Of a DNA stretch of 64,000 nucleotides, positions 9,297-63,296 are shown piece by piece. Each line of letters opens with the position of its first letter. The first letter of the stretch is position 1. The DNA lies in the NCBI RefSeq assembly GCF_030684315.1, contig NC_081369.1, forward strand, positions 28,045,754 to 28,109,753. Reading direction: 5' to 3'. The notes under the pieces were generated by a model. That model did not search any database and had not been told where the DNA came from. It worked only from the letters and a program-made list of their open reading frames with translations. The position numbers and the translations under genes were made by a program. Origin of the DNA: Stegostoma tigrinum (taxonomy: Eukaryota).

Positions 9297-9329
9297 TCCC
9301 CCCCGCCCCCAAATTTTCCTCACTACTTT

Positions 9330-37797: not shown

Positions 37798-38438
37798 CTG
37801 CAAACAAATGGTTGAACTTCAGTTACTCTTTTTCAAAAGTATATGTGGTTTACTACAACAGAAACAAGGAAACTAAAATGCAACTTTTCTATAGATAATT
37901 GGGTTAGATTCTTTGTGATGGCATTTTTAGCATGTGTCAACAGTGCTGAATAGCAAGGTGCCAGATCCCTCTACAAATTTTTGTTTTGTTTGCTATTGGT
38001 CATACCTGATTAGTACACTGTTGGGGTCTTAAATTCAGTTCATAAAAATAACGATGCGCGCAATCAACGTGAACACAACGACACTTTCAATCCATCATGT
38101 TTTCCCACATCTGGAGCGATTCAGTGTTTAATAGAAACAAAAACAGAACATTCTGGAAATACTCAACAGCTGTGGCAGCATACAGGCAAACAGGAACAGA
38201 GTTAAAAGTTCCAGGTAAGACTTTTGCAGTTTTGTTTTAAAACTTTGGATTTCCAGCATTTTCTGTTTTTATTTCGGGCTTCCGGAACAGCAGTTCAGCA
38301 CTTTTTGTTTTGGTTTGGGCGTTTCACAGGCCGGTTGATATTGAGGAGGGAATATCCCCACCACCAGAACTATATCGGGAAGTGCACCGCTCACAGTTAC
38401 GAGCAGTCCTTTTCTCAACTACAAATCGGAGAACTCAC

Positions 38439-38510
38439 TTCGCCACCGTCCCGTCGCCGGCTGTAAGCAGGAGATGTACTCGGTCAACCTCCTCTCGAAA
38501 GCCTTGAGAT
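38439..38510 (-). CDS. CNEP1R1: CNEP1R1 exon 2
   Basis: 72 nt; (D)[23 protein letters not shown]; acceptor ttgcag, donor GTGAGT. Confidence 0.97.
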
Positions 38511-38638
38511 CTGCAACAAAAGACAGCAACAACACGTCTAATTCAGAGAAGGCTCTGTACAGTACAGCTGACACAGCACCACCCCCAACCCAGGATCCAA
38601 CCCGAGGTGACAACTCACCATCCCCAACCCCAACTTAC

Positions 38639-38663
38639 CTTCAGCTTGTTCCAGAGAATTCAT
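38639..38663 (-). CDS. CNEP1R1: CNEP1R1 exon 1 (start codon)
   Basis: 25 nt; MNSLEQAE; donor GTAAGT. Confidence 0.96.
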
Positions 38664-41450: not shown

Positions 41451-42107
41451 ACAGTTTAACTTGTCTAGCACGTGGAATTTAGGGCCTATGTATTACGCAA
41501 GCGTCTTTTAAGTATATAGCACACGGAATGAAAATGGAAAATGAAGATGTGTCTTGATACACCAAGTGTTATGTCAAAAAGTTTACACAGTGATCTGTAG
41601 GATCTATCATCCTGTTTAGGTTTATAATTAGATGGCATTTTGCAGTTGGAAAATCCTGCTTGATGCCGTACTCACTTTAGATCACTTAGATCACTCAGCC
41701 ACTAGAGTTGCACAAGACAGAAATATAATTGTTTGATTGGGATGATGTTGCTGGTGTTGTGAAGATGTTGCAGCACTAACTACTTCATACTGTTTCCATA
41801 TAATACAAGCAGAGGTATTGGCTATGTCTGATATTCTCAATTTATTTGAAGGAACAGGGAGGGTTTCTTTGTAATTGGTTTTGGAACCTTTGCATCCCTG
41901 GACGTATTATGCTGCTTAATATCCTGCTTTTGGCTAAACTTCATTTTGATATTGCGTACGTCCCCTACAATTATAGTATTGTTCTACTGGAACAAAAATA
42001 ATTGAGGGTAGTGGATAACTTCCAAATGAAGCATATGCCAATAGACTGTTAGATCTTTGAAACAGTGCGTTAGTTTATTAGCTGGTTTACTATTTCCGTA
42101 GGCAAAG

Positions 42108-42166
42108 ATGTCTACTTGGATAAAACCGAGGGGAGGTCCATCACACAGACCCAGCCCAGATGGAAG
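42108..42166 (+). CDS. NCOA5-like protein, first coding exon
   Basis: Acceptor ttccgtag ends at 42101; ATG at 42108; MSTWIKPRGGPSHRPSPDG(S); donor GTAAGG; phase chain closes to a 1167-nt CDS. Confidence 0.72.
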
Positions 42167-42497
42167 GTAAGGATGATTTATTAAGGTGTAGATGTTTAGA
42201 TTAATATTGATAGCTGGTGCTGCACAAGTCCGGCAATGAAAGTTGGTTGGATCAGGACTCAAATCACTAAACTAACTTGGTTTAATAAGGATAATTATAA
42301 ATTTAATTAGCGTATATTGTGAAAAATGAATCCATATTACCTATTTTCAACTGTTAACTTAGCTGTATCTTTGAATTTCTGACTGAATTTTACACTCCAG
42401 TTGCACAAAGAATGAGGTTTTTAAGCTAATTTATGGAAGACGATTTTAACAAAAGGCTAGAGATTAACTTTGTATTTTCTTTTGTTCTCTTTTCTAG

Positions 42498-42545
42498 TTC
42501 CTATGCAACAGCGGAATACAATGTTCCGAGAGAATCCTTACCAAG
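42498..42545 (+). CDS. NCOA5-like coding exon 2
   Basis: 48 nt, phase 2-2; SYATAEYNVPRESLP; long polypyrimidine tract plus ctag; donor GTATGA. Confidence 0.68.
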
Positions 42546-42683
42546 GTATGAAAAGTTAATTCTGGGATAACAAAATAAATTGTCCAATTGCATTTGCAAT
42601 AACACTTTTTTTGTTCTGGAATGTGGGGCATCAGTTTGCCCAAGACTGGTGTAAAAGGGATAGGTTTTGTTTGATAAATCACA

Positions 42684-44345
42684 GGTAGGACTTAGACATT
42701 TAATGGTAGGCCCCTGGATAATGGTGTTGAACTGAGATACCTAGGGGTTCAGGTACACAATTCTTCAACAGTTACGTTGCAGGTGCACAGTAAGGGGTTA
42801 AGGCATTCAGCACGTTTGCATTCATTGTTCAGACCTTTGTGCATTGGAGTTGGGTGTTGTGTTGAGGTTGTACAGGACGTTGATGAAATCACTTGTGGAG
42901 TACTGTGTACAGTTCTGAATGCCCTCCTATAGGGTGGATATTATTAAGTTGGAGAGGATTCTGAAAAGCTTTACCAAGATGAGTGGTGTTCCACAGGGCT
43001 CTGTCCTTGGGCCTCTACTGTTTGTAATTTTTATTAATGACTTGGATGAGGGGATTGAAGGATGGGTCAGCACGTTTGCAGACGACACAAAGGTTGGAGG
43101 TGTCGTTGACAGTATAGAGAGCTGTTGTAGGCTGCAGTGGGACATTGACAGGATGCAGAGACGGGCTGAGAGGTGGCAGATGGAGTTCAACCCGGATAAA
43201 TGCGAGGTGATGCATTTTGGAAGGTCGAATTTGAAAGCTGAGTACAGGATTAAGGATAGGATTCTTGGCAGTGTGGAGGAACAGAGGGATCTTGGTGTGC
43301 AGATACATAGATCCCTTCAAAATGGCCACCCAAGAGGACAGGGTTGTTAAGAAAGCATATGGTGTTTTGGCTTTCATTAACAGGGGGATTGAGTTTGAGT
43401 CATGAGATCTTGTTGCAGCTCCATAAAACTTTGGTTAGACCGCACTTCGAATACTGCGTCCAGTTCTGGTCACCCTATTATCGGAAAGATATGGATGCTT
43501 TGGAGAGGGTTCAGAGGAGGTTTACCACGATGCTGCCTGGACTGGAGGGCTTTTCTTATGAAGAGAGGTTGACTGAGCTTGGACTTTTTCCATTGGAGAA
43601 AAGGAGGAGGAGTGGGGACCTAATTGAGGTACACAAGATAATGAGAGGCATAGATAGAGTTGATAGCCAGAGACTATTTCCCAGGGCAGAAAAGGCTAAC
43701 ACGAGGGGTCATAGTTTTAAGCTGGTTGGAGGAAAGTATAGAGCGGATGTCAGAGGTAGGTTCTTTACACAGAGAGTTATGAGAGCATGGAATGCGTTGC
43801 CAGCAGCAGTTGTGGAAGCAAGGTCATTGGGGTCATTTAAGAGACTACTAGACATGCATATGGTCACAAATTTGAGGGTGCATACATGAGGATCAATGGT
43901 CGGCACAACATCGTGGGCTGAAGGGCCTGTTCTGTGCTGTACTGTTCTATGTTGCTGGGACATGAAGCGTTTGAGCTATAACGATAGGTTGGGACTCTTT
44001 ATCATTGGCTGACTGTGGAGCTTCTTGAAGTCATGAGGTGGGGTAGGTAAGGTAAATAGTGACGGTCTTTTCCCTCGGGTGTGGGATTCAAAATTACGGG
44101 GCTTATTTTTAAGGTAAACTGAGAGGCGACTACTTCACACAGTGGCTGAAATGAGGAATGAACTACCAGAGGAAGTAATAGATGCAGGTACAGTTACAAC
44201 ATGTAAAAGACCTTCAGACAGGTACATGCAAAGGAAGGGTTTAGAGGGATACAGACCAAACATAGGCAAGTGGGGCTAGTTTAGTTTGGGAAACATAGCC
44301 AGCACGGACAAGTTTTACTGGCTCAGTGCTGTGTGACTGTGATGT
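42684..44345 (+). mobile_element. Older CR1 3' fragment (host of a young CR1 insertion)
   Basis: 'EYCVQF*MPSYRVDIIKLERILKSFTKM' resumes as 'LLG' after ~43950. Confidence 0.75.
42982..43951 (+). mobile_element. Young 5'-truncated CR1 LINE (RT domains 4-7 plus 3' tail)
   Basis: SGVPQGSVLGPLLFVIFINDLD...FADDTKVGG...WQMEFNPDKCEVMHFG; VRPHFEYCVQFWSP; only about two frameshifts; tail ctgtactgttctatg. Confidence 0.92.
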
Positions 44346-45028
44346 TGTGCAGAAATCATTTGTGTATATATAGTGCATAAAAGCCCTTGTAAAGGTTGTC
44401 TTGGCAGCTTGATCTTTCAATTAGCAACATAAGAATTTTCTGTGAATACTCTGTTGTAACTACATTGAGGATAATAATTCTTATCCTCTGCTTTCCCATT
44501 GCGGGAACACACAAGACTTGTATTGCATCACGTTTGAGGATGATTGTTATTACTGTAAGTATTATGAAACGACTGAATTCAGTAAAACCTTCAATGGTAC
44601 TTTGCTTATTCCACCAATTTTTACTGGTGTTTAATGCCTCCACTTGAGGGCTCAAATTTACAGTATTCACAGCTTTGCTCCAAATCTAGACCTGCTCAAT
44701 GAGTCTAGTGCAACTCTACTTGACTTGTTTTTAATTGAACATGGATGAGTTTAATTTCAGTAAGGGTCAACAGATTAGGGAAGCTTGACTTATTCTTACA
44801 TTACCTTCCAGTAGTACTCTGAACTTGTTTGAGGTGCATCATTGCCACCCCAAATGAGGTTCATTAACTTGCGACTTCTGCACAATTTCATTTCATGATG
44901 TTTTTGGAGTCATCTGTAGGTCTTGTTTTTAAATAGAGATTTCTTGGGTATTGATATCTAGGATATTTAGTTTTAAGATTTTATTTTAAAAGTTAACTAT
45001 TTTGGTTATTGTTTTATGTTCTTCATAG

Positions 45029-45100
45029 TATACTTTCAACTTGGCAAGATCTAGAACAAGACCGATCACCTTTGGGCGTTGCAAGAGTTGATCCCTACAG
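45029..45100 (+). CDS. NCOA5-like coding exon 3
   Basis: 72 nt, phase 2-2; ILSTWQDLEQDRSPLGVARVDPY(R); DRSP and DPYR echo the NCOA5 N-terminus; acceptor ttcatag, donor GTGTGA. Confidence 0.68.
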
Positions 45101-45139
45101 GTGTGAGATAAATAACTTTCTGGTGATCCCAGTGATGAT

Positions 45140-48100
45140 GGTCATAGAGTCAGAGTCCGACAGCATGGAGACGGGGCCCTTTTGGCCCAAACTGGTCCAT
45201 GCCATCCAAATATCCATTCATATTAGTACCATTTCCCTGTACTTAGCCCATATCCTTCTAAACCTTTACTATCCGTGTATTTGTCCAAGGGTTTTTAAAT
45301 GTTGTTAACGTACCCACCTAAACCACTTACAATGGCAGCTCATTCCATTTGCTTACCATCCTCTGTTAAGGAAAAATGTTGCCCTCCCGTGTATTCTTTC
45401 CCCACTTGCCTTAAACTGATGCCGTCTAGCCATTGATTCCCCAACCCTGGAAAAAATATTGTGCATTCACCCTATCCATTGCCTGTCATGATCTTGTACA
45501 CATCTGTAAGATCCTCCCTCAGTCTCCTACATTCCAAAGAAAAAGGTCCAAGCTTGTCCAACCTCTCTATATAATTCAGTACCTGGCAACATTCTTATAA
45601 ATTTCTTCTGCACTCTTTCCAGTGCAATAAAATCTTTCCTATACCAAGGTGACCAAAACGGAACAGAATGCTCCCAAGTGTGGCCTCACCAAAGTCCTGT
45701 ATAACCGCAACATAACTTCCCAATTTCTATTCTCCGTGCCCTGATTGATGAAGGCCGGTGTGCCAAAACCCTCCTTCAGCCCCCTGTCTGACCTGTGCTT
45801 CTACTTTCAGAGAATCATGCACCTGAACTCCTAAGATTCCTCTGTTCCACTACACTCCTTAAGGCCCTACCATTCTCTGTGAAGCTCCCCCTAGATTTGA
45901 TTTTGCAGAATAAAACATATCACACTTGGATCTATTACACTGCATTTGCCATTTCTTAGCCCACTTCCCCAACTGATCAAATCTTGCTGCAATTTCTGAT
46001 AACCTTCCTTGCTGTCTATTTTAGAGTCATCCACAAACTTACTAATCGTGCTTTGTACATTCTCGTCCAAATCATTGATATAGGTAACAAACAGCACACA
46101 AATAGGACCCCTGAGCACATCACTATTCACAGGCCTGCAGTCCGACAAGCACCCTTCCACTATTACACTCTGCTTCCTACCATCAAGCCAACTGTGTATC
46201 CAATTGCCAGCTCTCTCTGGATTCCACGTGCTCTAACCTTCCAGAGCAGCTTACCACGTGGAACCTTATCAACAGCCTTACTGAAATCTGTACAGAGTAT
46301 GTCTACTGCCCTGCCCTCATCAACCTTCCTGGTCACTTCGTCAAAGAACTGTCACAAATTTGTGAGCTCTGTACTCACATGTACAGAGCTATGCTGACTA
46401 TTGATAATCAAACGGTGTTTTTCCAAATGCGTGAATGTCTTATCCTTCAGAATTTTCTCAAGTGACTTACCTACTACAGATATTAGGTGTACTGGTTTAT
46501 AATTTCCACTTTCCAGCCCTTCTTGGTAGCACATGTTGTGCCCTTATCCCTTCAGTCTTTGGAAACCTCATCTGTGGCTGACAATGATGGAAATATACCA
46601 GCCAAGGCCCCTGCAATTTCTTAGCCTCTTGCAGGGTTCTTGGATATATCTGGTGAGGACCAGGAAATTTATCCATCTTCGTACATTCCAATATTTTCAA
46701 CACCACCTCTCCTGTGAATTGGACTATCCCGAAGATATTGCCCCCTAACTTCTCCAAGTTCCCAAGTCGTCTTGTCCGCAGTAAATAGAGGAGCAATATT
46801 CATTTGAGACCTCTGCCATCTCTTGCAGTTCAATACATACATGTCCACTTTAGTCATTGAGTGGTCCTATTCTCTCTCTAGCTATCCTTTTCTCCTTTTA
46901 AAGAATCTCTTTGGATTCACCCTAATCTTCTATCTCGTGTCCCCTTTTCGCCCTCCTGATGTCCTTCTTCAGTAAACTTCTGTATCCCCTATATACCTCC
47001 AGGGATTCCCTTGATCCCAGCTGCCTGTACCTGAGCTGTGCCTCCATTTTTTTTGGGTCAAAGCCTCAATAACTCTCTTGTCATGCAATATTCCCTACTC
47101 TTGCCAACCTTGCTGTTTGCCCTCACGAATGTATCGACCTTGAACTCTAGCATCACACCCTTAAAGGTCTCCCACCTGTCAGAGGTCCCTTTGCCTGCAT
47201 ACAAACTACTCCATTCACCTCCTGCAAGCTTCTGTCTAATTCCATCAAAATTTGCCTTGCTGTAGTTTAGTACTTGAACTTGTAGACTTGTTTTGTCCCC
47301 TTTCATAAGTATTTTAAAATTAATGGCACATGGACACTGGTCCCAAAGTGCTCCCCTACTGTCACCCCAGTTACCTGTCCTGTCTGATTTCCCAACAGCA
47401 GATCGGGTTTTGCCCCTCCCCTGCTTAGGACCTTCTATATACTAATTGAGGAAATGTTCCTGAATACGTAACAAATTCCACCCTATCTAAAGCCTTCGCA
47501 CTATGGCAGTCCCAGTCTGTTAGGAAAATTAAAATGTCCTACTCTGACAACCTCGTTGCACCTCCAAGCCTCTGCAATCTCCATGCAAACATATTCATCT
47601 AATTTGCGTTAACTATTACCTGTCAGCCCTCTTGCATTGAAATAGATACAATATAATCCAACAGGCATTCTACATTCCCTGTCTTGTTCCAGCCTGACTT
47701 GTCTCTTCAACTTGCTATTTCTGATTACTGTGTCTCCTCCCAGCCTCCCACTTGCCTCCCTACTTTGGGGGGTCCTACCCCTACCAATCCAGTTTAAGCC
47801 CTCCGCTGTAGCATTGGCAAATCTGCTTGCCAGGATATTAGCCCCTGTCCAGTTCAGGTGCAACCTGTCCCTCTTGACCAGGTCACCCCTGCCCCAGAAA
47901 ACATCCCAGTGATTTGAAGAATCTGAATCCCTGCAACAAGTCTTTAGCCATGCATTCATCTGCCTTATCCTCCAGTTCTTACCCTCATGAGCACGTGGGA
48001 CTGGAAGTAATCTGAAGATTACCACCATTGAGGCCCTGGTTTTTTTTTTTCTCTAGCTGCCTATAATCACTCTACAGGACTGCATCCTTAATTCTACCTA

Positions 48101-48240
48101 TCCCATTTCTGCCAGTGTGCACAATGACTTCTGGCTGCTCACCTTTCCCCTTGAGAACATTCTGCAGCCCCTCTAAGACATCCTGGACCCTGGCAGCTGT
48201 GAGGCAACACACCCTCCTGAATTCTTGTTTGCTTTTTGTC
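45140..48240 (-). mobile_element. Long degenerate CR1 LINE with ORF1 esterase, ORF2 endonuclease start and RT
   Basis: 'VIVHTGRNGIG' and 'RDRLHLN' (SGNH-esterase-like ORF1), 'CIYFNAR' (APE start), 'GNYKPVHLISVVGK', 'ISKFVDDSKI'; 3' tail at ~45145. Confidence 0.85.
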
Positions 48241-49284
48241 TTCAATGTGAATTTTGGTAATTTCCACATGTAAGTAATGGAGCACTATTTTCTACTTGGA
48301 ATGATTTTTATATAAGTTCCTCGCTGCTCCAGTCAAAACCCACGAAACATTGCAATCCATTTCAGAGCAGGTAATTTTACTTGACCTTCCTGTTAATTTT
48401 TGGTCTTAGGTGTCAATAACTTTACTCATAAAGGCACATAGCAGTCGAAATTTATTTCACTTGCAACCTTTGCATGTCAAATAGAAATTGTATTATAATG
48501 CTCTAAGTAGATCTAATAAAGTCAGCATACTTTATCTACCACACCCTCCATTTTATGATAATTAATAGACTAATGAATGGTTTGTGGTTAAATGGTTTAG
48601 CAGCTCAGTTTACTTTTTATAACATGGATCGGGGATTTTTGGGACTATACTTGATTCTGAGCTTTATCCTTGGGGTTCTTGACTTCTAGAATCAGATTCG
48701 AACTAGTTAGGACTAATTAAGAAATAGCTCTCAATCGTTTACTGATGGAGTAGATTTCTGGATGGAGTCTTGAAAACTAAAGCCACAAAATTTTAGAACC
48801 AATCATCTCTCTCACCTGTCTTAATTCCATCTGTTTTCCCCTCTCTTTATTCCATTTTTGATTTGGTATTAAATAGTCTAACTTAAACTTCCAGGTTTAC
48901 ACTTCGCTGCTTGTGACGACTTAAGTGCTTTCCTTTTTAATTACAAGTTCCGCAGTGTTTTCAGAAGGCATTGCAATGGAATTCCTAACGGCTACACATT
49001 AGTGTAAATTTTGCTTGTATTAGGTCTGTAAACTGCCTTCTATTGTTTTCCCAACTGACTGTGAAATCCCTTGGCAGTGCAAGGAAGGCACATGTGCAAA
49101 GCCAGATCGAAATCCACCTTTATGCATAATTGGAAGTAGACCAAAATAGGAACAGAAGTTGAGCATCTTGCTGTTGAGGCCAATTGCTGTTTTGACCCCA
49201 TATTCCTGAGGGAAAAAATTGTTTAACCGCCAAACATCTTCATTTCTTTGGTTTTATCCAAATTGAGTACCTGCTCCTGAGTGT

Positions 49285-49810
49285 TCTCTACCATTCAACA
49301 AGATCATGACTGAGCTGTTTCTGTTTGGAATTTTCCATGCTTGTCTGCCCCAAGTAACCCTGTGATTCCCCGCCTAACAAGAATCTACATCTTCAGAAGT
49401 ATTGTGACCCCACCTCTTGTCCATTTTGGAGGGTTCCAAAGTGTCTCAACCCGCTAATAACCTTTCTATGCCTCTACCATAATAAGGCACCTGCTAAAAT
49501 GCTGCTCCCAGTTCTGGACCGATCCACCAGATGAAAACATTCTTTCCACATTGACCTTAGCAAGATGTTCAGGATCTTGTCACTCTCAATGTTCTGAACT
49601 CAAATAGAAACAAACCCATCCTGTCTGTCTTATCCTTGTCAGATAACCTGCTCATTCCAGTATTTCAGTTGCAAACTTTCTTTGAATGGTACCCATGAGT
49701 TTCTATCCTTCCTTTAAAAACAGGAGACCAAGACTGCAGGCAGTATTTGAGATGTAATCTTAACAATGTCATATATGACTGAAGCATAAATCTTAGTTTT
49801 GTGTACTGTT
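49285..49810 (-). mobile_element. Old CR1 3' fragment
   Basis: ggagaccaagactgcaggcagtatt is the reverse of the YC.Q.WSP motif. Confidence 0.55.
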
Positions 49811-50439
49811 GATCTCATCATAAATATAGGAGCAGGAAACAACACAGCACCATCCAGTGCTCAGGCCCCATCTTTCCATTCCAACAGGGCTGCAAGCAGG
49901 AATTCATCTTACTAGGCTCAAGTGTGTGGCTATCTAACATTTGGGCAGTTTAAACATCTGAATACCAGCTACTGTTCTTGCATGCATCCAATCCCATCAG
50001 GCTCCAGTGGCTTGATCTCAGATCTTTCCTTGAAAAGGACAGTGGGAAGAGAAGAGGAGCGTTGTAGACTGTGTGGAAAAGAGGTTTTGGGCTAGCATCA
50101 CTGCAAATACCAGTGGCCATTTTAATGGCCATCTCACTGTTCTGGCCAACTACTGTTTCAACCCCAAATTCCTCAGGGGGCAAAAAAAATGTTTAACCAT
50201 TAAATGGCTTCATTTTTGCAGTTTTATCCAAAGTGAATACCTGCTCCTGAGTGAAATGGAGCCTGTAAATGATTGTTCTGCATTAGCAAAATTGTTTTTT
50301 TACTGATGTTCCAAATCACGTTTTTGTCATTTTAACACAAATTTGAAAATAAGTTCACTAAAAGAAAACAAACTAGGTGATTGTATCAGTCGGTGCAAAT
50401 TGGATATCTATTCTTGCTGTTCTCTCTCTTGCTTTTCAG

Positions 50440-50516
50440 GACTCAGGAAGTGTTGGAATATTATGGTGGCTATACTGAACCTTACAGTACAGAGGATTAC
50501 AACTACACTTGGAGCG
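50440..50516 (+). CDS. NCOA5-like coding exon 4
   Basis: 77 nt, phase 2 to 1, which is exactly what links 45100 to 55040; TQEVLEYYGGYTEPYSTEDYNYTWS; strong acceptor, weak donor GTATAT. Confidence 0.65.
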
Positions 50517-53500
50517 GTATATATGATTAGCATCTGCTTCCTGTAGCATGCACATGTTTGCTGTAAATTCAAACTCATTGTAAAATGATTGAAAGCAAGT
50601 AAAGCTATATTTGTTGAAAGGCTGCTGTCTAGAATGTTTGCTAATAATGTTTTATTTCATGTCACAGCTAGGATTATTTAGGAAGCAACAATAGAATTGA
50701 GTCCCCAAATGAATACAAAACTGCAGAGGGACTTCTCCAACTGTTTTAAAAAACGGTGTTTGATTACATGAAAGCAGTGAAGTCTACATGAATATAAGTA
50801 CTTGTGTGGGTAAACATCCTTGCCTTGACATTTATTTGACACGTGTTATTTTGACATGTTTTATTTGGGTTAGTTTGAGGGCCTTTTAGTAGTCCCTCGT
50901 TATGACAATATGTTCCTTAAAAGATTCCCTGACCTTTTACTCAAGTCAAGATGAGTTGCAATTGTCAGACAAAATGGGGCTTATGATTATCTTTATTGTT
51001 GTTATTTTTAACTGGTATGGATGAGTAGAATTAGCAACTGTTTGGAGGTTGGGGCATCGCAGGATGACGTTCAGAACTGGATAGAAAGATGTACCATTAT
51101 AGAAGGATTGATAGGAGACCAGTTTCATTTGCTGACTTCGATCATAAATGTGAAATATTCAGAGGAGTTCCATGCAGAGGAAAGATTTGAAAACAATTTC
51201 CTGTAACCCATTGGGGGTTGCAGATGGAAAGATACTACCAGATGTAGCTTTCTGATGAAATGGGGGGGTGATTGAAGATGCTAGGAGGAGGATGAGGTTC
51301 AGCGGATTACTGAAATAATAGGGAACAGTCATTGATATTTCTCCACTCTGGGTGCCTCCAATTGTACCTTCCCATTCTTGCCTTTCCCCTTCACCCTTGA
51401 CAGAGTTCTTCCTTTGCTTCCCTGTATGCTCTTTTCTGTTGCCATTCCTATGCTTTGAGCTGGTTGTTAATGAGCTGCAGCCAAGAGTGTTTGCCTGCGT
51501 TTTATTTACAATCATTGGGTTCTCTGCAAATAACCTTTCTCAAGTGGGTTTTTGCCACATTGGTCATTTAGCCTCTGAATCCTTTTGCAGCATTCGCTGA
51601 GATTCAGCTCCAAGGACCCTCCACCTCTGCTCGCCCTCCCCTCCCCAATACCTCTCATTTAAGCCGTGATTTAAAAGGAACAGTTAACCCATTGTCATTT
51701 TGTGGAAAGCATGTTCCCAAACTTTTATCATTCACAGCAGATAAACTGTTTCTTGTTTTGCTCTAAGGTTAGTTATTAGACTGTGCTCCCAAGTGTTCGA
51801 TTCCATAATTGGAAAACTAGTTTTCGTCTACCTACTCGTTCCTCTAAAGACATGGAATGTTTAACTATCTAACACTTGTAATTTAACCCCTGGTCTTCAA
51901 GTCTAATTCTGAAGCCAAGATATCTTCCTTGAGGTTTGGTTATAACCAGAGTTTGTCCAACTGCAGCACAACCTTTACATGGATAATTAACAAAAAATGA
52001 AAATGCTACAGCCAAGAAATGAAAGACTGAAACTGAGTTGCTGCTGTAGACAGTTAACATAAACATGGCTGATCAAATGGTTCCCTCCAGACCTGTGTGA
52101 CCATTCGTGATGCCTCCCTGAACTATATTTCCATAAAGGACAGCATTCTGTTATTTTCTACATCTGTTGGTGACATTCTATTGCTTTGTGTACTCGGGCG
52201 CAAGGCTTCTTTGGATGCCACTGTCTCTAGCTTTTCAATTAGAAATTGCCCTGTTCTAATCTTTCTAAAGTTGCTGACTTCTCATTTTCCAACTTTGAAA
52301 TGCATTGACCAGGATTTTGCCTATTAATCTTTTTATGCTGTAGCAGTTTTATGCATCTACACGACTCAATGTTGCCCATCTTTGTGGCATTTGAGCAATT
52401 GTATATGACGCTCTTATCATCTCATCAGAACTGTTAATAAACAGTGAATAGCTGAGGTCTGAACATAAACCCTTGCAGACACCGGTAGTCACATTCTGAC
52501 GAGTTAGAATGCTTGCCCATTTCAGAAGGGCTGTTGTGGCCCAGTGGTAGTTGCACAGGGTGTATTGTAACATCTTCCAGGTTGATTTTTTTTTTAAATG
52601 TACTGCTAATCAGACTCTCGCTGCGCAGCTACTTAAACAGTTCAATAATATGCCATCAATTCCATTACCTTTGACTAACTAACAATATGAAGGATTTCAT
52701 CAAGTCTTTAGAAAGGTCAATAAACATCTGTTTACACATCTGCAGTGAGTAAAGGAAAAAGGACAATAGTTCTGTGGAGAGCATTACTGAAAGATGCAAC
52801 CTTTCCAGATGATGGGTTCGATGCTGGGTAATGAAAAACTACACTTCCTCATGGGAACCTAAATTTAGGAGCTGCATTTTATAAATATATAAATAAATAG
52901 GACCTCTCTCTCTTCAGACTGAGATAAGAAATTTCTGTTGATGGTTTTCAGTGTTTGGAATTTTCTGCCAGATACAGCTATACATGTTGAGGTGATTGAT
53001 GAATTATTGTATGAGCTATTTTTTTCATCTACAAGGGACTTGAGCAGTAGGCAGGAAATTGGAGTTCAAGCAACCATAAAAGGAGATACAATTTCATTGT
53101 ACAGTGGAGCTGTCATAGTGAGTTGTTAGAGTTGAATGACCTACTCCTCTCATTTCTTATGATCTTATTCAATTGGGAGGATAGTTTGTGCAAGGTTAGA
53201 GTGCTCATCAGTGCAGGGGGTTCTGTAGTTTTGGACAGTGGGATTTTGGATCTCATGTGGAACAGAGTTTCCAACATGGACATCGACTGATTGGAGCAAT
53301 GAACTGACTGACCTGCTTGTGGAACTGCTGCTCCCTGAAGTGTCAGGGTTTCAATTGTTTCTGCATGTGGAACAATGTTGTGAATTGTTGGTGTTTTGGG
53401 GTCCTAGAAAAGAAAATACTTCACTGGGTTGAACTCATTAAAGGACATTGTCCTTTAATATAGATGATGAAGTTCTGTCAGCTGTATTGCTTAGATTACC

Positions 53501-54539
53501 AGACAGGGTGCATCAAACAACATGTACCATTTGTACTGGTTTCAGAGCGATATGCTTCGATTTGGTGCTGTTGCTTCAAGTATTTGGTAGAACTGCACAC
53601 TGAATCGAGCAATTTAGATTGAGGCTGGGATTTAAGAGACTAAATTGATTAAAATTGTGGCTGTTCGTACCTTAATGGCTCTGCATTTGTTTTAACTGGC
53701 AGAAAAGTCCATGAAACTTAGAATTGTCAGTTCTGCTGACAAATGAAGGAAAATATTGAGGCCCTTTTAAAGAAGGAAATATGCTAATTACATAGTGACT
53801 GGGACACAACCAGGTTAGGAGGATGCAATAAGTTAATTATTTACCAGCATCCTTCCAGTTCTGTGAGGTTTGCATATGGCAAACAAATCCGTTTCAGATG
53901 GGGTGTCTTTGTGTTGAACAGCTTTGCAGCTGACTGAAATTGAGAAGTTCTGCCACAAGTGCTGGACATGAAGCTACTAAGAGTATTCATTGGTGTCGGT
54001 TATCAAACTGCTGTAGCTACTGGTCATCGTGGTGATGTTCACCAGCCCACAAGTCACAGTATAACAACTAACCTGGGAGAGAAATAATGTAGAACAATTG
54101 TATTTTTGTGTTATCGCTGTTCAGTCTGGTCACAAAGTCACCAAGCTGCCTGAATATGAAGTTTGTATGTCAATAATTACATAAGCAGTATGTAATTATA
54201 ATTTCCTGACAGCAGGAAATCAAGTGGTGGTGGTAAGATATTAACATGAAGATAGATTAATTGCCATCTCCTTTTGAAGTTAACAGTTGTCTTGGATTTG
54301 CTCATTAAACTGCAGACTGTAAATATGTGAAGAGGTACTTTGCTTTATTTTGAAAACTTACTGAGGCATGAAAATATTTCAAACGAGAGGTTGAATATTA
54401 TTTAAAAATAAACATTTCTCCAAGAACCACAAAGCACATCAGATTAACATTAAATATTGCATTAATCTAAGCAATTAACAGAAATTCTTCCCCACCACAA
54501 GATGAAGCAGCATGCTTTTTGTACCAAGACATCAGTCAT

Positions 54540-54960
54540 GATTCACGTAGTAGCGCACTTGCCTTTTTGAAGCAGAAGGTTGCAGGTTTAAGTCCTGTTC
54601 CAAGACTTGTGCGCAGCCATTTAGGCTGATACTCCATTGCAGCACTGCAGGAGTTCTGCACTGCCACTGGTAATGTATTTTGGGTAAGGGATTAAATAAT
54701 GCCCAGTGTTCCAAAGTAGATGATCCCTTTAGACTATATTGAAGAGTGGTGTTGTTGGGAAGACATGTTATTCATGTACTGGTCAATATGTATCCCTTTA
54801 ATGGCAACACAAAAATTAAATTATGGCTATTTACATACTGATATGAGAGTACTTTTGGTGTGCAAAATGGCTGCCACATTTCTTGAGTAGCAAGAATGAC
54901 TAAGCTGAAAATACTTGGTGAAATGCTTCAATGTATCCACTACTCAAGAAAAAATACATA
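54540..54960 (+). mobile_element. Deu-domain SINE (SacSINE1-like); other fragments at ~790-950, 1680-1850, 12400-12580
   Basis: tRNA-like head gaaggttgcaggtttaagtcc, then ggctgatactcc.tgcagcactg.gg.gt.ctgcactg and tgtgcaaaatggctgccacatttc. Confidence 0.55.
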
Positions 54961-55039
54961 GAAATGTCAGACTAAATTTTCATATCAAATGAAACTGTTC
55001 TGTTTTAATTGTTTAACTATTGTATATTTTTGTTTACAG

Positions 55040-55169
55040 AAGACAGCTGCAGACAAGAAGACAGTCGCCGAGATGAGCTTTATCAGCAGTTTTACAGAGA
55101 GATAGAGGATGACTACAATAAAGAAAAACATGCTGACTGTGTAGTTATAGCACTAAGCAAGCAACAGGG
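55040..55169 (+). CDS. NCOA5-like coding exon 5
   Basis: 130 nt; (E)DSCRQEDSRRDELYQQFYREIEDDYNKEKHADCVVIALSKQQ(G), resembling recalled NCOA5 'ERRREELYRQYFEEIQRRFDAERPVDCSVIVVNKQ'. Confidence 0.9.
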
Positions 55170-57359
55170 GTAAATTTCCTTGGGATTGTTATTTTGTTAT
55201 TCTTTGGATATTGCAAACTCATGCCCTACAAATTTCTATCCTGCTCAGGTTTGTGACTGCAATTTGAGACTGATTTGATGCCAGTCTTCAACTGGAGAGA
55301 ATTATCTGTGATTTCATTTGAAGAATTTGCATGTTCACTTTTTCTTAATTATTGTTAGGGATGCTACTTGAAAAAATTTTAATTAATGATGAAGCGGCTT
55401 ATTTCATGACCACAATTAGCATTTTGGTTCCAGGGAGAATGTCACTGATCTTCTACAGCAATTATGCATTTAATATCTTGTTTAAATCCAGTTACACTTC
55501 ATTCAACTATGTTTGAAAGGCTACCTCCATGAAAGCAAGAGCACAAAAAGGTGAAATTCACAACACTTGACATTGTTTGAGGTTTCCATCCTTCGAGACT
55601 TAATTGGTTATTTTGAAGAAGCAAGGAATCATTGATAAAACTTCTAGATATCCATTTTTAATTGCATAGCAGATGTACAGTCTGTCAGTTTTTATCAAGT
55701 AATGAAGATGGTTAATACCAACTATTCCACTGCTATTCTGACTGCTAACTCTGGGCTATTGTCTTTCCTGTGATATTCATATTGTAAGTTGCAGTGTTGA
55801 TTAGTTGACTTAAGTGACAAATAAGTAATGGTTTGAGCAATGAGGTTGAACTAGAAGCAAAGTTTGTGAACTAATCAACACTGAGTCTCTTGGTGACACA
55901 TGGGGCTGGCAGTATTTAAACAGCAAGATTGATAGAGCAGAAAACCAAATTTTTCCATAGAGGACATTACAGAATATTTTGTAATGTTGATCATCTGGAT
56001 CAATAAATATGAAGAATTTGGATTTTTTGAATTTTGCAAGTAGCTATTTATTTGTACTTCCTTTGGTGCTGTGGTTGCAACTAGTGCAAAGAGAGGCTGC
56101 TGTCTTTTTTGTTTTGAGAAAACATTGTACTCTGCAATAGCTGGTACTGTCTGTGGCCAATATTTGTGCGTCCTTTGGGATTTGGTGTGGTTACGTGATG
56201 AGGGCATGATGCGTTTCATTTCAGTGACTGCATTGTACAGGTGCATTTCACAATTACAGAGCCGTGGAGTAAGATTTAGTTTTTTAAAGTGGATATCTGT
56301 GATAATGACAGCTGTGATAAAACCTATCAATCACTTGACCTGGAAAACAATTGGGTATTTGTCAGGAATTTTGAGGCATGTTGTGTAACCTGGGACTTGG
56401 AAGAATGAGGTAGTTTTGATGGTGAAATGAGTCATGTTTAAATTGGATTTTGTGAAAACTAGATTGGGGAAGGAAACTACAGTGAAGTGTTCAAAACCTA
56501 GATATTCTGATCTTTGGATGCTTGGAGGTTAATGTAACAGATTTCTGATGTCTAATCAGTTCTTGTCAGTTGTATATTTCACTATACAATGTTCAGCTTG
56601 CACATTTGACAATGTTAAAGTGGTCAACCTGGACAATTGGGATCCCTTGGTTTCTGTCAACGGTCGAAGCGTTATTCTAATACTATTGGCATATCTACTC
56701 CATTATGATAAAGTCATTTGTCTCGATTCATCTAACTTCCTTTTTGCGCAGGAAATTAGCTTTAAATTCAGTTGTGCTGAAGCAGGCCAGACACTAATAG
56801 TCATGTAGTCATACTGGATTGAAACAGGCTTTTTAGTCCAACTCATCAATGCCAAGCAGGCTTCCTAAATTGAATTAATCCCATTTGTCTGTATTTGGTC
56901 CATATCCCTTTAAATCTTTGCTACCTTTGCACCTTTCCAAATGTCTTTTTAATGTTGTAGTTGTACCCTCCTCTATTTTGTCTGGCGGTTTGTTCCATGT
57001 ACATGCCAATTGAAGAAAAAGTTGCCTTAATTTGAAGTCTAAATATCAGAATTTGCTATCTTCATTGCTTCTGTTCTGTCTAACTTCTGAACAGTTTTCT
57101 ACAGTGTCTGTTCTAGACTAAAATATCTTAATTGGCTAACTAGCCAACTTACCATACCTTTGATATTCATTGCTATGTTGTTCTGGAGTTTGGATGCCCA
57201 GCGACTTAACGTTGCTTTGTTTTCAAAGTTGAAGCTATAGCCCTCCGTTGTCCTTGTAATCAAGCTGTTCTTTAAGAAAAGAACATTATTTTGGTTTCTG
57301 AAAGCATTGGTTACCACTTCAGCAAAGCCTTTGATGGGATCCCTTTATAGGAGAGGGAC

Positions 57360-58045
57360 AAAGAAGGTAAAAGCACATGGGATCCAGGATAACTTGGCAA
57401 TTTTTATCCAAAATTGGCTTAGCAGGAGACAGAAGGTGGTGGTACAAGGCTTTGTATTACTGGAGGACAGTGTCCAGAGGCATACTACAGCAGTTGGTGC
57501 TTGGTCACTTGTTCATGATTTATATATAATCATGAACATGTATAAATGATGCAGCTGTGTCTGTGGGGGATAAGTTTTCAGATGACACGAAGATTGGTTG
57601 AATGGTTGATAATGAAGAGGAAGGTCATGGATGACAGAATATAGATGTTTTGTCAGAAAAGTGTGAGGTGATGCATTTTGGAAGAAATAATAAGGCAAGC
57701 CTGAATGGAAGGACACTAGGACCTCAGGAAGGGAGGGATTTTACAGTCTTCGTCCACAAATCCCTGAAGCTGGTGGGGCAGGTTAGTAAGCTGGTTAGCA
57801 TATGGGGCACTTGCCTTGATCAGTCAAGGCATGGATTATGAGAGCTGAAACGTTATGTTGAAGTTGTATGTAGGATGTCATTGCACTGGAGGGGACACAA
57901 GAGATTTACCAGAAGGTTGCCTTGGATGGAACACAAAGCTGGGTGTGCTGTGGTTGTTTTCTTTTTGGAGCAGAGAAGGTTGAGGGGAAACCTGATAGAG
58001 GTGTATACACGATTGAGGGCATGAATAGGGTGAATAAAAAGCAGC
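57360..58045 (+). mobile_element. Degenerate CR1 LINE fragment
   Basis: 'KVKAHGIQ..FIQNWL', 'KFSDDTKIG', 'EKCEVMHFGR'. Confidence 0.75.
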
Positions 58046-58225
58046 TAAGTTTTTAATGTTTGTTCACAAAAAAATTCTCATCTTCGTGTATTTTTATTTT
58101 AGGGTCTTACTCTGTGGCTTTGATTTTTGTGAAAAATTGTAATTGTGTGTATTACTAGCAGCTTTAAGTGTTACCGATCTTATTTGAGTATCTAATTGGA
58201 AAATGTCCACTCTTTCAATTTTAAG

Positions 58226-58425
58226 GGACTATGCCAAACTGGTAGGACGACGAGTCCAAGAACTGGGGCTTCTCGTGGATCTTGTGTACCTTAAATTAGA
58301 GTTGGCTCTTGATACTGCTTTGAAAGATGTTCGAGAAGAAGGTTCCCCGTTTTGTGTCGTCGTTGGAGGAGAACACCAGTCTCTGTCTTCTTGCACAGTG
58401 ATTATTTTGTATGCTGGTCACAAAG
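58226..58425 (+). CDS. NCOA5-like coding exon 6 (anticodon-binding-fold domain)
   Basis: 200 nt; DYAKLVGRRVQELGLLVDLVYLKLELALDTALKDVREEGSPFCVVVGGEHQSLSSCTVIILYAGHK, resembling NCOA5 'DYAESVGRKVRDLGMVVDLIFL...GSPFAIVI..QHQ..SCTVNIM'. Confidence 0.92.
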
Positions 58426-59661
58426 GTACATATACAATACCCGTAAAGATACTTGTCGAATTCTTGAGGTGCAGTGGCCCAAAAGTGTATTTTGCTTTCA
58501 TTTTGCTTTTGTATAGTCTTATTCCTAGGTAATTTGATGGTCGTGTTTTATTATGAACTAAATCATGTTTTCCCAAAATGTTTGTGTTGTTGTGTGGTCA
58601 TATTGAAATATTTCCTTCAAAAGTGTTTTAGTGGAATTGTTTATTTGTAAACTTGGTAAAAAATATGAGATTGGTTTTTACAACTGTTTCTTTTTCAAAA
58701 GGCAAGCAACAAGTGCTGTTGAGTTTTTGCTTTTAAGAAAGAATACCTCAATTTGTAGGAAATTTTCCCCCCATTCTTTGGCACTTGTGGCAGTAAAGCA
58801 TGCTTCCTGGTGCTTGGTTTTTGATGACCTGACTGAAGTTGGAGTTTACTAAGGAGTGAGTGCATTCGGACTGTTTAAATTGTCTAATCCATTGTTCACA
58901 GACTCTCTGTATTCATGTGATCAGGCTGCTAGGTATCACTGGGCAGTTAATAGAGGAAGTTTTAGTTTTGTTTTGTCTTTCCTGATTTGAAGGACAGTAA
59001 ACTTTTTTCCCTGTAGGCTAAGCTTCATACTTCAAAGCTTGGATTATAGGATAACTTTAACTCTTCCAATTATACTTTAAAAATCAATATTAATTTACAG
59101 GTACTAAAAATGTGTATTTAAATCATTGTTTCATAAATCATACTTGTTTCAAATATTATCAAGATAACATCCTTTTGATTTTCAATACACAAATTATCAC
59201 TTCAGTTTGCTTCTGAGATCTGCGCCAGGCTTGAAATTTACAACTGATGTGCCCAACCTAAATGAGCTGGAGTCATGTAGCAATTATATCATAGCTAGCT
59301 TGTGGCGTGAGTATGGTTGCACAGATCCAAAACTTCAAGTTCAAATTGCCTTTTCTTTTTAAGGTGCATATAACCTAAATCTTTTACATAAAGCATTAAA
59401 ACTCTTTTCATTTCCCTTCCCCCGTGCGCCCCCACCCCATCACCACCACCACACAAAATGCATATTTAGGTTCTTCTCTTCCTCCTCTTTAATTGTTTCA
59501 CTCCTTTTCTGCATCTTCATCTTTCTTTCCTCCCAAAAATACCATCTTCGGCTTATCCACTGAACCGTTTCTCTTAAGTTAGAAGAATATATTGACTCAT
59601 TACTTAACATAATGAAGAGCTTTCATATCAGATGAAAAGTTAAGTTATCTATCTTGAACAG

Positions 59662-59943
59662 AACATCGTAATATGCCTTTGGAAGATGCTTTGGACCTGA
59701 TTTCACGTGAACACCAACGCATTTTTGGTGAAACTCTGGAAAAAGAACGTCTTGAGATCGCACACAAAGCAGCCAATTTGGCAGATGATTATCTTCATCG
59801 TGAGTCTTACGATGAAAGTCATGTTGTGCCCAGCAGCATTCGACATCTCCTGTTCCTGCTGGGTGATGGAAAACATCTGTATGCTGAGGAGCTTCAAAAG
59901 GTGATTGACTATTTGAACAAAAGGAAAGAGGCCCTTGAAGGAG
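59662..59943 (+). CDS. NCOA5-like coding exon 7
   Basis: 282 nt; (E)HRNMPLEDALDLISR...IRHLLFLLGDGKHLYAEELQKVIDYLNKRKEALEG, resembling NCOA5 'HRNMPQADAM...LINLLADNRYLTAEETDKIINYLRERK'. Confidence 0.92.
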
Positions 59944-60500
59944 GTTAGTTGAGTTAATAATTCTGCCTGCACGGAGTCCATACTGATGGAACTCACTTTA
60001 TCAGCTATCTCTTAAATTGTTTTATTTCTTGCATTTACAATTTAAACTGAAAATCAGTATTAAGCATTTTGTTTGTTAACCTTGAGGTTTTTGAGCAATA
60101 GTTAAATACAAAATTAGGAGAATCTGACTAATTGAACTTCTAATGATTACAACTGTGACCATTGCACTGTCAATGAAGGAGTTGCTAGATTCGTAAAGCA
60201 GCAATTTCAAAAATGGTATTTTGCCTCTTTGTGTATCTGATGTTCAAAATTAAGGCAAAGATTAATTATGAACGCCCTTATTCCATGGAACAGTACCAAT
60301 ATTCAGTGCCTAGATCCATAATTCTGTTAACGGCTCCAAAACACACTGGCTTCAAGATCACCACATGTAGCCTTACGGATGTGGTTCAAAATTTTGGAAT
60401 TTGACTTATGAACATACTTTCAAATGTGCTACTTTTGATAATTGTTACAAACGTGATTTGGAATTTGGTTGTCTGACACATTGTACTTGTGTTTTCATAG

Positions 60501-60566
60501 AAGCTAACAGTAATTGGCAAAACTACCAGGAAGGAGGAACTGAACTTTATCAGTGGCCACATGATC
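60501..60566 (+). CDS. NCOA5-like coding exon 8
   Basis: 66 nt, phase 1-1; ANSNWQNYQEGGTELYQWPHD; acceptor ttcatag, donor GTAAGT. Confidence 0.78.
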
Positions 60567-60753
60567 GTAAGTGACCATATTTCAAACTTTTAGTGAAATG
60601 TTTGATATGGCTATTATTCAGTTTTGATACTTTGATAAACAAAGTAGGATCAGAAATAGACCGTTTGTGGAATTGAGTTTCTAAGAGGCCTGAATTAAGA
60701 TAATGCAAGCTGTCCATTAGTATGCACTAATGTTTTAAACTTTTACTTTACAG

Positions 60754-60945
60754 CTTCTCTGGCACAACAACCCACTGGAACTGAAGGTTACTATGATGTT
60801 GGCAGTGTTCCACAGCCCTCTAGCAAGCCTAAACCCCTCCTTCCAACACCAGGCAGACCACCCCTTTTGGGTCATGCTCCTCTTGCTCAGAAAAAACCTC
60901 CACTTTTGGGTGATCGACCAATCAGGGCTCTTTTGCCTGCTCCAG
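60754..60945 (+). CDS. NCOA5-like coding exon 9 (proline-rich)
   Basis: 192 nt, phase 1-1; SLAQQPTGTEGYYDVGSVPQPSSKPKPLLPTPGRPPLLGHAPLAQKKPPLLGDRPIRALLPAP; branch point cactaat plus tttacag. Confidence 0.85.
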
Positions 60946-61544
60946 GTTAACATTTCTTCACTTAATTAATATGCAACTTTTTGCCTTAAATAAAACTGAT
61001 CACACCGCATTCTCACTTGGGCCCCTCACTGACTACTTGGATGTTTTGGAGATGAACTAATACAGCAAATTTCCTGTATTTTGGATATGTAAGGTTTACT
61101 TTATCCAAGAGTGCCTGTTCACAAGGTGCCGCCTAAAGCTTGCTGTAATTTCAAGCATTGCAAGATTGTAAAACTGCAAATTGAGCTCAGATTTTCAGTT
61201 TTGTCATCCCATTTTATGAGCCATTTTGTTCAGAATAATTAACTTAGCACTTCCAAAATGTATTTATGGTATCCTTTACTGTGTCATGGAAGGGATAAAA
61301 GTCAGAACACTTTGTAGAGCTATTTTAGTCAAATTTTCTGCCAGGGTAAGAGTCCAGTTCTTGTGAAAAGCTCAAGGACAGTGCCACTTCACAGCTGTTT
61401 CCGACAGGTCTTGAGTCTTTCAGTAAGAGAATGAATGTGTGTGTTGAGTCAGGTTGTGGGGTTGATTTTGGAGGGATCAGTTTTGGTGTTCCATTGAGTA
61501 ACTCTAACTAATCTGATTAGAGCAAGGACTAACCATCAGTATAG

Positions 61545-61900
61545 GATAGAAAGAACTGCCAATGCTGGAGAGAGAGAGATACAACAGTGTGGAGCTGGAG
61601 AAACACAGCAGGCCAGGCAGCATCAGAGGAGCAGGAAAGTTGATGTTTTGGGTTGTGACCCTTCTTCAGAAATGGGGGAGCGGAAGGGAGCTCTGAAATA
61701 AAGAGGGGTCAGGGTTGGGCTGGGGAAGGTAGGTGGGATGGTTATAGCAAGTAGGTAGGGATTGGTGAGTAAGGTGGGAGAGAAAATGGACAGGTCTAGG
61801 AGGTGGGGATGAGGGGGAGGATTGGTCTTGGGATGAGGCTGGGGGTGGGGAGATTTTGAAGCGAGTAAAGCCCACATTGAGGCCATTGGGTTGTAGCAGT
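61545..61900. mobile_element. Penelope-like element fragment
   Basis: Same terminal module (gagctggagaaacacagcaggccaggcagcatcagaggagcagg...cccttcttcag) followed by a G-rich body. Confidence 0.65.
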
Positions 61901-63255
61901 ATGTTTCCTAGGTATTTCCAGGTAACTTGAGTCTGTCCGTTTCAAGCCATTGATAATTGCAGCAAGTCCCATGCAGTGGAAAACAGCCCCACTGAAGTTT
62001 AAATTTTTTTTTTGGTATTTGCACTGTGTGTAAAGGCATACGAGGGGTCACGATGTGCACCTCCAACTTGCATCCTATTTCTGAAGATTTGGGACACATC
62101 TTTAATTTACATGTACCAAACACTGGGGGTCATCTGTTTTAAAGTTAGAAATGTGAAGGAATAGCTGAAGCAAAGTGATTCAAATGATATTCTGCAATGT
62201 GTCAGCAGAGTAAAATTTATCCTTTTTTTTAAAAGAAATGCAGGAAAAATACGTATTCTGAACTGAATAAATGTGACCATAAATGGATTAGCACACAAAC
62301 TTGGAATAGAGGCAATGCACACTTTTTACAACGTCCAGAAAGAATTCACTAGTTGCATATAGGAGGAAATGTATTTGGATACAGATTGAAATGATTCATG
62401 AAACGATGAACCTCTAAAGGAAATCATGACAGCAAAATTCAAGTTTGGAATTGAACCTATAAAAGTTTTCCTAATGGTTACCAACAATGACAAAATTTAG
62501 ATGGATCATTTTTGATTTCATTTAAATTTTCTCTAACAGGCTATAACCACTAGGAGTGTGGTAGTAATAATTGTTTGTGCCCCACCTGTTTGCAATCATT
62601 TTTAGCTGAGGAGATGAGTTGTTACATGTCCAATTTTGTTAATGATGCAAACATGAGTGGAACACCAAGTTGTCAGCATGCAGGCTGCAAAGGATGGGGC
62701 AGATTAAATGAGGTGACAAATGGACTACAGCATTGGGCAATATTAAATGTTTGATGTATGGAGTTTGGGTAAGCGTTGGGCTGTTTACGAAAGAATGATG
62801 GTGATCCACATCTTGGAATACTTGCTAGTTTAGTCTCCTTGTACAAGGAAGGATATACTTGCCTTTAGGTGAAATGAACGTTCCATGTTAGAGATGAGAA
62901 ATTTCTTCCGAGTGTTGTGGAGTTCTCTTCGCCAAAGTGGTGTAAATGTTCAGCCATCCAATATATTCACAACAAAGGTTGGACTTTTGGACACTAAGAA
63001 TTAAGCAATGATGAGGGGCATGGAGAAGTTGATGATGGTTAATATATATTTCACTTGCCATCTAACTCATGGGTTGTATGGCTGACTCTTGTCTGTTCTT
63101 ATGGATAATCTTGCTTTGTATTCTTGTCAGATTGTTATTTTAAAAAAAAACATAAATAAAACAAAATAAGCATTTTGTTAAACTGCAGCTTGAACTTGTT
63201 GCTAGACTGATTTTTATTTTACAGGAAGTAAATATTTTTATTTCTTTTATTTTAG

Positions 63256-63296
63256 GTCATCCATTAAAACTAGGTGCTAGACTCCAGCTGCAGTAA
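63256..63296 (+). CDS. NCOA5-like last coding exon (stop)
   Basis: 41 nt; (G)HPLKLGARLQLQ*; strong polypyrimidine tract plus ttag; followed by repeat-free 3'UTR-like sequence with ATTAAA at 63882 and 63891. Confidence 0.7.

Follow-up and report, generated by a model that had tools for sequence, protein, structure and literature searches.

The locus described here raises the question of whether a shark gene that resembles nuclear receptor coactivator 5 (NCOA5) is a second, separate copy of this vertebrate gene, and what became of that copy in mammals. The gene, which we call NCOA5L, occupies positions 42108-63296 on the plus strand of a window of 64,000 nucleotides (the whole stretch of DNA analyzed) from the zebra shark, Stegostoma tigrinum. 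A first-pass annotation had proposed that it is a whole-genome-duplication sister of NCOA5, kept in sharks and perhaps bony fish and lost in the mammalian lineage. As judged from its sequence relationships, NCOA5L is almost certainly an ancient paralogue separate from NCOA5, and one that is present in mammals.

The gene model agrees with the ten exons and approximately 388 residues first proposed. Phases are consistent across the ten coding exons, all nine introns have GT-AG borders, there is a single terminal stop, and the 388 residues are identical throughout to S. tigrinum protein XP_048402827.1, which carries the NCBI label 'nuclear receptor coactivator 5-like'. A second isoform of 364 residues (XP_048402830.1) equals this product without exon 3. 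Nine exons were evident at first reading, while exon 3 was missed by a splice-matrix scan and found through homologues. We compared positions 42050-62040 with contigs from four runs, presumed to be RNA, that belong to four studies of related species (exons about 95-99% alike). All eight joints of exons 1-9 and the skip from exon 2 to exon 4 are present in these contigs, which carry no information on tissue, expression level or start site. The gene is expressed and conserved.

The folded core of the product matches human NCOA5 (PDB 1V95) with an E value of 1.3e-15. Over 195 core residues its identity is 41-47% to NCOA5 of seven jawed vertebrates and 43-55% to bony-vertebrate proteins named 'NCOA5-like', and the central exons are related to NCOA5 yet diverged, as had been noted. 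The phylogenetic tree was built from 38 proteins and 194 core columns, with rows chosen for taxonomic breadth among approximately 450 retrieved proteins and five of the rows (four fish and one mammal) assigned by similarity. It contains an NCOA5L clade of 20 rows (support 100/100), a jawed-vertebrate NCOA5 clade of seven rows including a devil ray (99/97), and a vertebrate clade that excludes amphioxus (100/98). Cartilaginous fish and mammals are found in both paralogous clades, and neither clade changed after removal of six long-branch rows. Branches are about twice as long in NCOA5L as in NCOA5, or more, and those of placental and teleost NCOA5L are long. Some gar, echidna and chimaera entries that are labelled NCOA5 fall in the NCOA5L clade.

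The approximately unbiased (AU) test rejected the placement of the shark gene as NCOA5 itself (p 1.8e-8), and the gene does not group with jawed-vertebrate NCOA5. Two further candidates were rejected by the same test, namely a shark-only duplicate of NCOA5 (p 5e-11) and a mammal-only duplicate (p-AU 3e-84). A true NCOA5 is present in cartilaginous fish (devil ray) in addition to NCOA5L. The proposal of a separate and ancient vertebrate paralogue is well borne out by these results. A match of intron positions between NCOA5L and NCOA5, as first proposed, is only weakly hinted at, by one-residue indels at NCOA5L positions 128 (two teleost NCOA5 proteins) and 195 (two hagfish records).

Since both paralogues occur in cartilaginous fish, the duplication is placed after the divergence of amphioxus and before the split between sharks and bony fish. 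In the tree, proteins of a hagfish and one lamprey tend towards NCOA5L (84/81, or 94/87 for the hagfish without the lamprey), with alternative placements not rejected (p-AU 0.089 and 0.125); this grouping, if right, would put the duplication at the first vertebrate genome doubling. Four divergent proteins of the NCOA5 family (P0320, P0340, P0325 and P0432), lamprey and hagfish among them, were found near the base of the vertebrate clade and could date the duplication. We take human 16q12, the CNEP1R1 region, to be paralogous to 20q13, where NCOA5 lies, with paralogues of SALL1 and TOX3 presumably near NCOA5 at 20q13. Together with the timing, this assumed paralogy makes it quite probable that NCOA5L originated in an early vertebrate genome doubling, i.e. 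as an ohnologue. The alternative is an early vertebrate duplication that was local or segmental and not part of a genome doubling; the tree dates the event and not its scale. We nevertheless regard such an origin as decidedly unlikely, because the timing is consistent with two early vertebrate doublings in the part of the source available (PMC7269912) and because SALL1 and TOX3 lie in the human CNEP1R1 region, the available part of a chromosome 16 deletion report naming ZNF423, CNEP1R1, HEATR3, SALL1 and TOX3 (PMC7272322). In the accessible portion of the Simakov 2020 text, no chromosome assignment was found.

The distribution of NCOA5L across vertebrates was scored as named orthologues among the matches listed, which for a placental-weighted profile are the best 120 of 351. 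Outside mammals, orthologues were identified in gar, coelacanth, cypriniform fish, frogs, salamanders, a caecilian, squamates, tuatara, turtles and alligator, so that the gene is indeed kept in bony fish as an uncharacterised locus (the coelacanth entry is named si:ch211-216l23.2), as suspected earlier. Within mammals they include platypus, echidna, several marsupials such as opossum and koala, the xenarthrans armadillo, sloth and anteater, and a range of other placentals (shrew, mole, pangolins, many carnivores such as cat, dog, bear and seal, pig, alpaca, hippo, fruit bats of the megabat group, and the cricetids hamsters, deer mice and voles). Full-length database orthologues exist for monotremes, marsupials, xenarthrans, carnivores, pigs, camelids, megabats, moles and cricetid rodents, and the mammalian proteins group within the clade of the shark gene in species order. 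Isoforms of placental NCOA5L break at shark intron positions 19, 35, 128-129 and 195, as expected for intron-bearing orthologues, and a retrocopy origin of the mammalian genes was ruled out on this ground.

The supposed absence from mammals thus did not survive. That no mammal has an intact orthologue is contradicted by the full-length proteins, the tree and the AU test, and by a 2026 bioRxiv preprint that, in the part available, mentions an extra NCOA5-like gene in most carnivorans. We therefore give next to no credence to a copy retained by sharks and fish but missing from the mammalian lineage as a whole, although no human, mouse or rat protein is present among the matches listed, and the available parts of human (PMC7272322), sheep and cattle gene lists name nothing between ZNF423 and CNEP1R1. 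What these observations point to is repeated loss within placentals, humans included, which we consider likely. The best 120 of 351 matches to the placental-weighted profile, in which other placentals score 519-734 bits, include no protein of primates, murids, lagomorphs, ruminants, horses, afrotherians or birds. The fin whale and narwhal have partial hypothetical models with gaps off the intron positions, as if the predictor had stepped over lesions. As far as the sequences and listed matches indicate, loss was likely patchy across lineages, e.g. in humans and whales. A search of supplements to papers on human pseudogenes and gene loss (nine files of PMC6886504 and one file of PMC10195156) yielded no entry for NCOA5 or CNEP1R1. 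Three placental-like NCOA5L fragments (P0331, P0400 and P0424), two of which have stretches that resemble another reading frame, are probably pseudogene remnants.

The structure model of NCOA5L is confident for approximately residues 90-290 and disordered at both ends. Exon 5 (55040-55169) encodes a helix and then the start of an anticodon-binding-like domain (PF03129, residues 118-210), the body of which is encoded by exon 6 (58226-58425). In the fold comparison, human NCOA5 ranks first (1V95; Z 17.8, root mean square deviation 3.3 Å over 125 residues), and class IIa synthetases come next, for example a HisRS (Z 16.5, 1.5 Å over 95 residues). As in the NCOA5 family generally, the domain is followed by a helical region with a leucine-rich helix and a hairpin. 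The N-terminal parts of the two paralogues differ. An RNA recognition motif (RRM), whose closest solved structures are hnRNP C and RALY, is found in NCOA5 of ray, frog, hagfish and amphioxus and in none of the five NCOA5L proteins scanned; by the evidence of these scans the ancestral NCOA5 had an RRM that was later lost by NCOA5L. The first-pass annotation had noted the lack of the Arg/Asp-rich repeat and a different C-terminus. The repeat is indeed absent, but that account of the N-terminus was incomplete, as the loss also includes the RRM. At the other end, the NCOA5 motifs ELQxKI and NxDNP..KAL are found in 15/15 and 12/15 NCOA5 and outgroup proteins, respectively, and in 0/29 NCOA5L. Five amniote NCOA5 proteins (four squamates, P0108-P0111, and one mammal, P0289) also have no hnRNP C-like RRM, and RRM loss in the two paralogues appears to have been independent. 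In an isoform of devil ray NCOA5 (X2, P0290) the C-terminus is replaced and has a weak GDSL/SGNH hydrolase match below the Pfam cut-off, perhaps because an exon derived from a transposon was captured, or as an artefact of the model.

Two regions of NCOA5L bear on its possible function. The first is encoded by exon 7 (59662-59943), which specifies a long helix and the helical hairpin. Two copies of residues 88-296 were predicted to pair through residues 235-288 (59778-59939) with a score of 0.60, compared to 0.01 for the best of three controls; at least 97% of contacts coincide between runs, and the predicted local distance difference test (pLDDT) value is at least 84. When the score was calibrated, 21 of 30 microbial homodimers attained the mark, compared to 0 of 23 monomers; for eukaryotes the counts were 17 of 29 homodimers (7 of 16 from animals) and 0 of 30 monomers. 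Inside the predicted interface lies an overlapping IxxLL/LxxLL helix (residues 255-262, with LxxLL at 258-262; 59838-59861), which is kept in most NCOA5L examined and whose pattern also occurs in crinoid, spider, locust and fly. The hydrophobic character of interface positions 255, 259, 261, 262, 268, 276 and 280 is retained in NCOA5 and in invertebrates, and positions 239, 260 and 277 differ between the NCOA5L and NCOA5 clades. Based on this modeling, we lean towards an NCOA5L dimer formed through the exon-7 hairpin. The exon 7 model alone gave no match with Z of at least 8 among 48,161 chains, only generic helices, and no solved relative of the hairpin was found in the structure comparisons.

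The second region is the disordered, proline-rich tail encoded by exon 9 (60754-60945), which contains LLPTP (60837-60851), two LLGxxP motifs (60864-60881 and 60903-60920) and LLPAP (60930-60944). Its LLPTP core at residues 340-344 has a pLDDT below 50. Shuffled sequences matched the two LLPxP and two LLGxxP copies of the shark tail in 17 and 8 of 20,000 trials, respectively. Across the family, LLPTP is present in 24/29 NCOA5L with 44 copies altogether (shuffled mean 0.04) and in 0/15 NCOA5 or outgroup proteins; for LLGxxP the counts are 24/29 and 1/15. Between shark and amniotes, 25-28 of 43 residues in the tail (336-378) are identical (58-65%), compared to 86-104 of 195 in the folded core (44-53%), and the conserved feature is the Leu-Leu pairs, not the prolines alone. 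A search of the ESM Atlas returned no usable match for the tail and family matches at phylum level only. According to the parts of the sources available, LLPTP is the SETD2 motif bound at the back of hnRNP L RRM2 (10.1101/2021.05.22.445248), and [S/G][I/L]LGxxP binds PTB RRM2 (PMC3420021; PMC13370473). By analogy, the tail of NCOA5L may serve to dock RRMs, a suggestion that we make tentatively.

The likeness of LLPTP and LLGxxP to the RRM2 ligands of hnRNP L and PTB, together with the predicted dimer, leads us to favour a dimeric RRM-docking adaptor. NCOA5L would likely be nuclear, and two copies would pair through the exon-7 hairpin using the IxxLL/LxxLL helix. The repeated LLPTP and LLGxxP motifs would bind RRM2 of hnRNP L/LL or PTB-type proteins on its helical back face. 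With several such docking sites, a dimer could adjust splicing or co-transcriptional RNA processing although it carries no RRM itself. The same helix could instead make NCOA5L a nuclear-receptor co-regulator that binds receptors through it and uses the proline-rich tail as an activation region. Sauve and colleagues reportedly located, in 2001, the receptor-binding motif of NCOA5 in this helix, and the overlapping motif is kept at residues 255-262 and in most NCOA5L. The motif leucines, however, are inside the predicted dimer interface, and the persistence of the pattern in crinoid, spider, locust and fly fits a structural role. A review of which part was available states both that NCOA5 was named for receptor binding and that NCOA4-7 seem to work outside canonical receptor activation (PMC12863189). 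On balance, we consider the co-regulator role unlikely.

Somewhat less likely still are two other roles. NCOA5L could act as a brake on NCOA5, altering or dampening its complexes after pairing with it by way of the hairpin common to both. The interface residues are conserved between the paralogues, and the absence of the RRM and of both C-terminal motifs would suit such a role; nevertheless, the dimer model concerns the homodimer only, positions 239, 260 and 277 are clade-specific, and in a pure inhibitor, a tail conserved beyond the core would be superfluous. The tail could also bind partners other than RRMs, such as WW, SH3, GYF or EVH1 domains, or a proline-directed kinase together with an F-box protein that recognizes a degron. 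Myc-type degrons carry a second Ser/Thr four residues on, a residue that is lacking in the shark, where GR comes after LLPTP. The conservation of Leu-Leu pairs rather than of prolines alone also speaks against such partners, whereas the proline-rich composition of the tail, the occurrence of LLPTP in the available parts of papers on Myc and FBXW7 degrons, and the departure of the shark motifs from the strict PTB consensus speak for them.

Taken as a whole, the explanation that combines an ancient sister copy, genome doubling, placental losses and a dimeric RRM-docking adaptor has, in our estimate, a probability of roughly 0.4. Several points count against it. Alternative placements of the hagfish were not rejected by the AU tests, and the genome-doubling origin was judged from timing and from the assumed 16q12/20q13 paralogy. 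Teleost copies, which exist, are likewise missing from the best 120 of 351 matches, and 231 others are unlisted. The proposed function is drawn from sequence and models; the dimer score is a model confidence only, and just one of seven eukaryotic dimers without an older solved relative passed the calibration. The shark protein has no strict PTB match ([S/G][I/L]LGxxP), both of its LLGxxP motifs being preceded by proline; the strict motif is found in 12/29 NCOA5L and its high-affinity form in 3/29. The tail motifs become weak in cypriniform fish and in cricetid rodents, and flanking residues matter for SETD2 binding in the available part of that study (10.1101/2021.05.22.445248).

A bolder joint reading, which we think improbable as a whole, would make the NCOA5 family a dimeric, hnRNP C-like RNA-processing factor whose receptor box is really a dimer interface. 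After the first vertebrate doubling, one copy would have dropped the RRM and become a multivalent hnRNP L/PTB-docking subunit able to pair with NCOA5, to be lost repeatedly thereafter in placentals (humans, mice, ruminants and whales) and perhaps in birds. If true, these losses kept the gene out of sight of research centred on human and mouse, and the lineages concerned form a series of natural knockouts.

Compared to known systems, NCOA5L is an uncharacterised member of a known family, and the gene is already included in automatic annotations across vertebrates, where 'NCOA5-like', si:ch211-216l23.2 and Xenopus LOC100145527 are automatic labels of the same gene. With NCOA5/CIA (human KIAA1637) it shares the anticodon-binding-like domain, the long helix and hairpin, and the overlapping IxxLL/LxxLL helix. 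In contrast to NCOA5/CIA, it forms a separate clade, has been patchily lost, lacks the RRM, the Arg-Asp repeat, ELQxKI and NxDNP..KAL, and has the LLPTP/LLGxxP tail. The fold of the domain is that of the class IIa synthetase anticodon-binding domains (HisRS, ThrRS, ProRS, GlyRS, POLG2 and GCN2), but the identity is 11-21%, NCOA5L has no catalytic domain, and RNA binding by its domain is putative. Repeated Leu-Leu-Pro or Leu-Leu-Gly-x-x-Pro motifs in a disordered, proline-rich region are also found in the SETD2 SHI motif, which binds hnRNP L/LL RRM2, and in the PRI motifs of Raver1 and Matrin3, which bind PTB RRM2; unlike these, the shark motifs have Pro rather than Ser or Gly before Leu-Leu, NCOA5L has neither an RRM nor a SET domain, and its binding is putative. 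As first stated, no functional study came to light: outside the subscription papers, which were beyond the search, the literature on NCOA5L amounted to one sentence in the 2026 preprint. The gene is an unstudied pan-vertebrate one that human- and mouse-centred catalogues would miss, and it occurs in tractable Xenopus, bony fish, dog, pig and hamster. Replacing the clean mammalian loss with repeated losses offers events that can be dated. For human NCOA5, the analysis bears on a possible dimer interface in the LxxLL helix and on a possible role of the family in RNA processing.

The remaining coding exons complete the gene. Exon 1 (42108-42166) begins with the ATG at 42108 and has a splice acceptor six bases upstream, which requires a preceding untranslated exon; its joint to exon 2 (42498-42545) is present in 4/4 runs, and the joints of exon 2 are found in contigs of relatives. 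The alternative exon 3 (45029-45100, 72 nucleotides) distinguishes the isoforms of 388 and 364 residues and is included in 2/4 runs and skipped in 4/4. Arg-to-Trp and Arg-to-Gln changes in it are common to the zebra and whale sharks, with eight other sharks unchanged there, and disrupt an RDRSP motif resembling those in the N-terminal part of NCOA5; in these two species exon 3 is possibly decaying. Exon 4 (50440-50516) encodes a tyrosine/acidic segment of low model confidence, and exon 8 (60501-60566) a poorly conserved linker. Exon 10 with the stop codon (63256-63296) is followed by ATTAAA signals at 63882 and 63891, and its peptide forms the same C-terminus that closes other shark and ray proteins. 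When the exons were scanned singly, no Pfam family was obtained. An AATAAA at 60989, 44 bases past the exon-9 donor and behind an in-frame stop, would make possible a shorter 3' end without exon 10. Intronic repeats with very high contig depth lie at 42700-44300, 45200-48300, 57300-58050 and 61400-61900, and their reading frames presumably represent fragments of long interspersed nuclear element (LINE) reverse transcriptases.

Both neighbours named in the first-pass annotation, CNEP1R1 and beyond it a HEATR3-like gene, lie on the minus strand. CNEP1R1 (26435-38663) is head-to-head with NCOA5L and has coding exons at 38663-38639, 38510-38439, 37797-37724, 36510-36401 and 29681-29627, with the last near 26435. 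Between the 5' ends of the two genes there is a CpG-rich island (38251-39750; GC 0.49-0.59, CpG observed/expected 0.65-0.95) that is likely to be a shared bidirectional promoter, and a candidate untranslated first exon of NCOA5L has its donor at 38951. In the NCOA5L model of the caecilian Rhinatrema, the peptide of the first coding exon of CNEP1R1 (here 38663-38639, minus strand) is spliced to NCOA5L exon 1. This fused model suggests that CNEP1R1 and NCOA5L lie next to each other in a tetrapod, and that an inversion or mis-assembly at the shared promoter may have swapped the first exons. The 5' part of the HEATR3-like gene (4990-14604) starts near 14604, has further exons near 10113 and 8648 and serves as a synteny marker; we take it to be HEATR3-like from its motifs, and its pieces matched no Pfam family. 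Just upstream of its start there is a degenerate tandem array of 30/60-base units (14762-15429) in which several frames are open.

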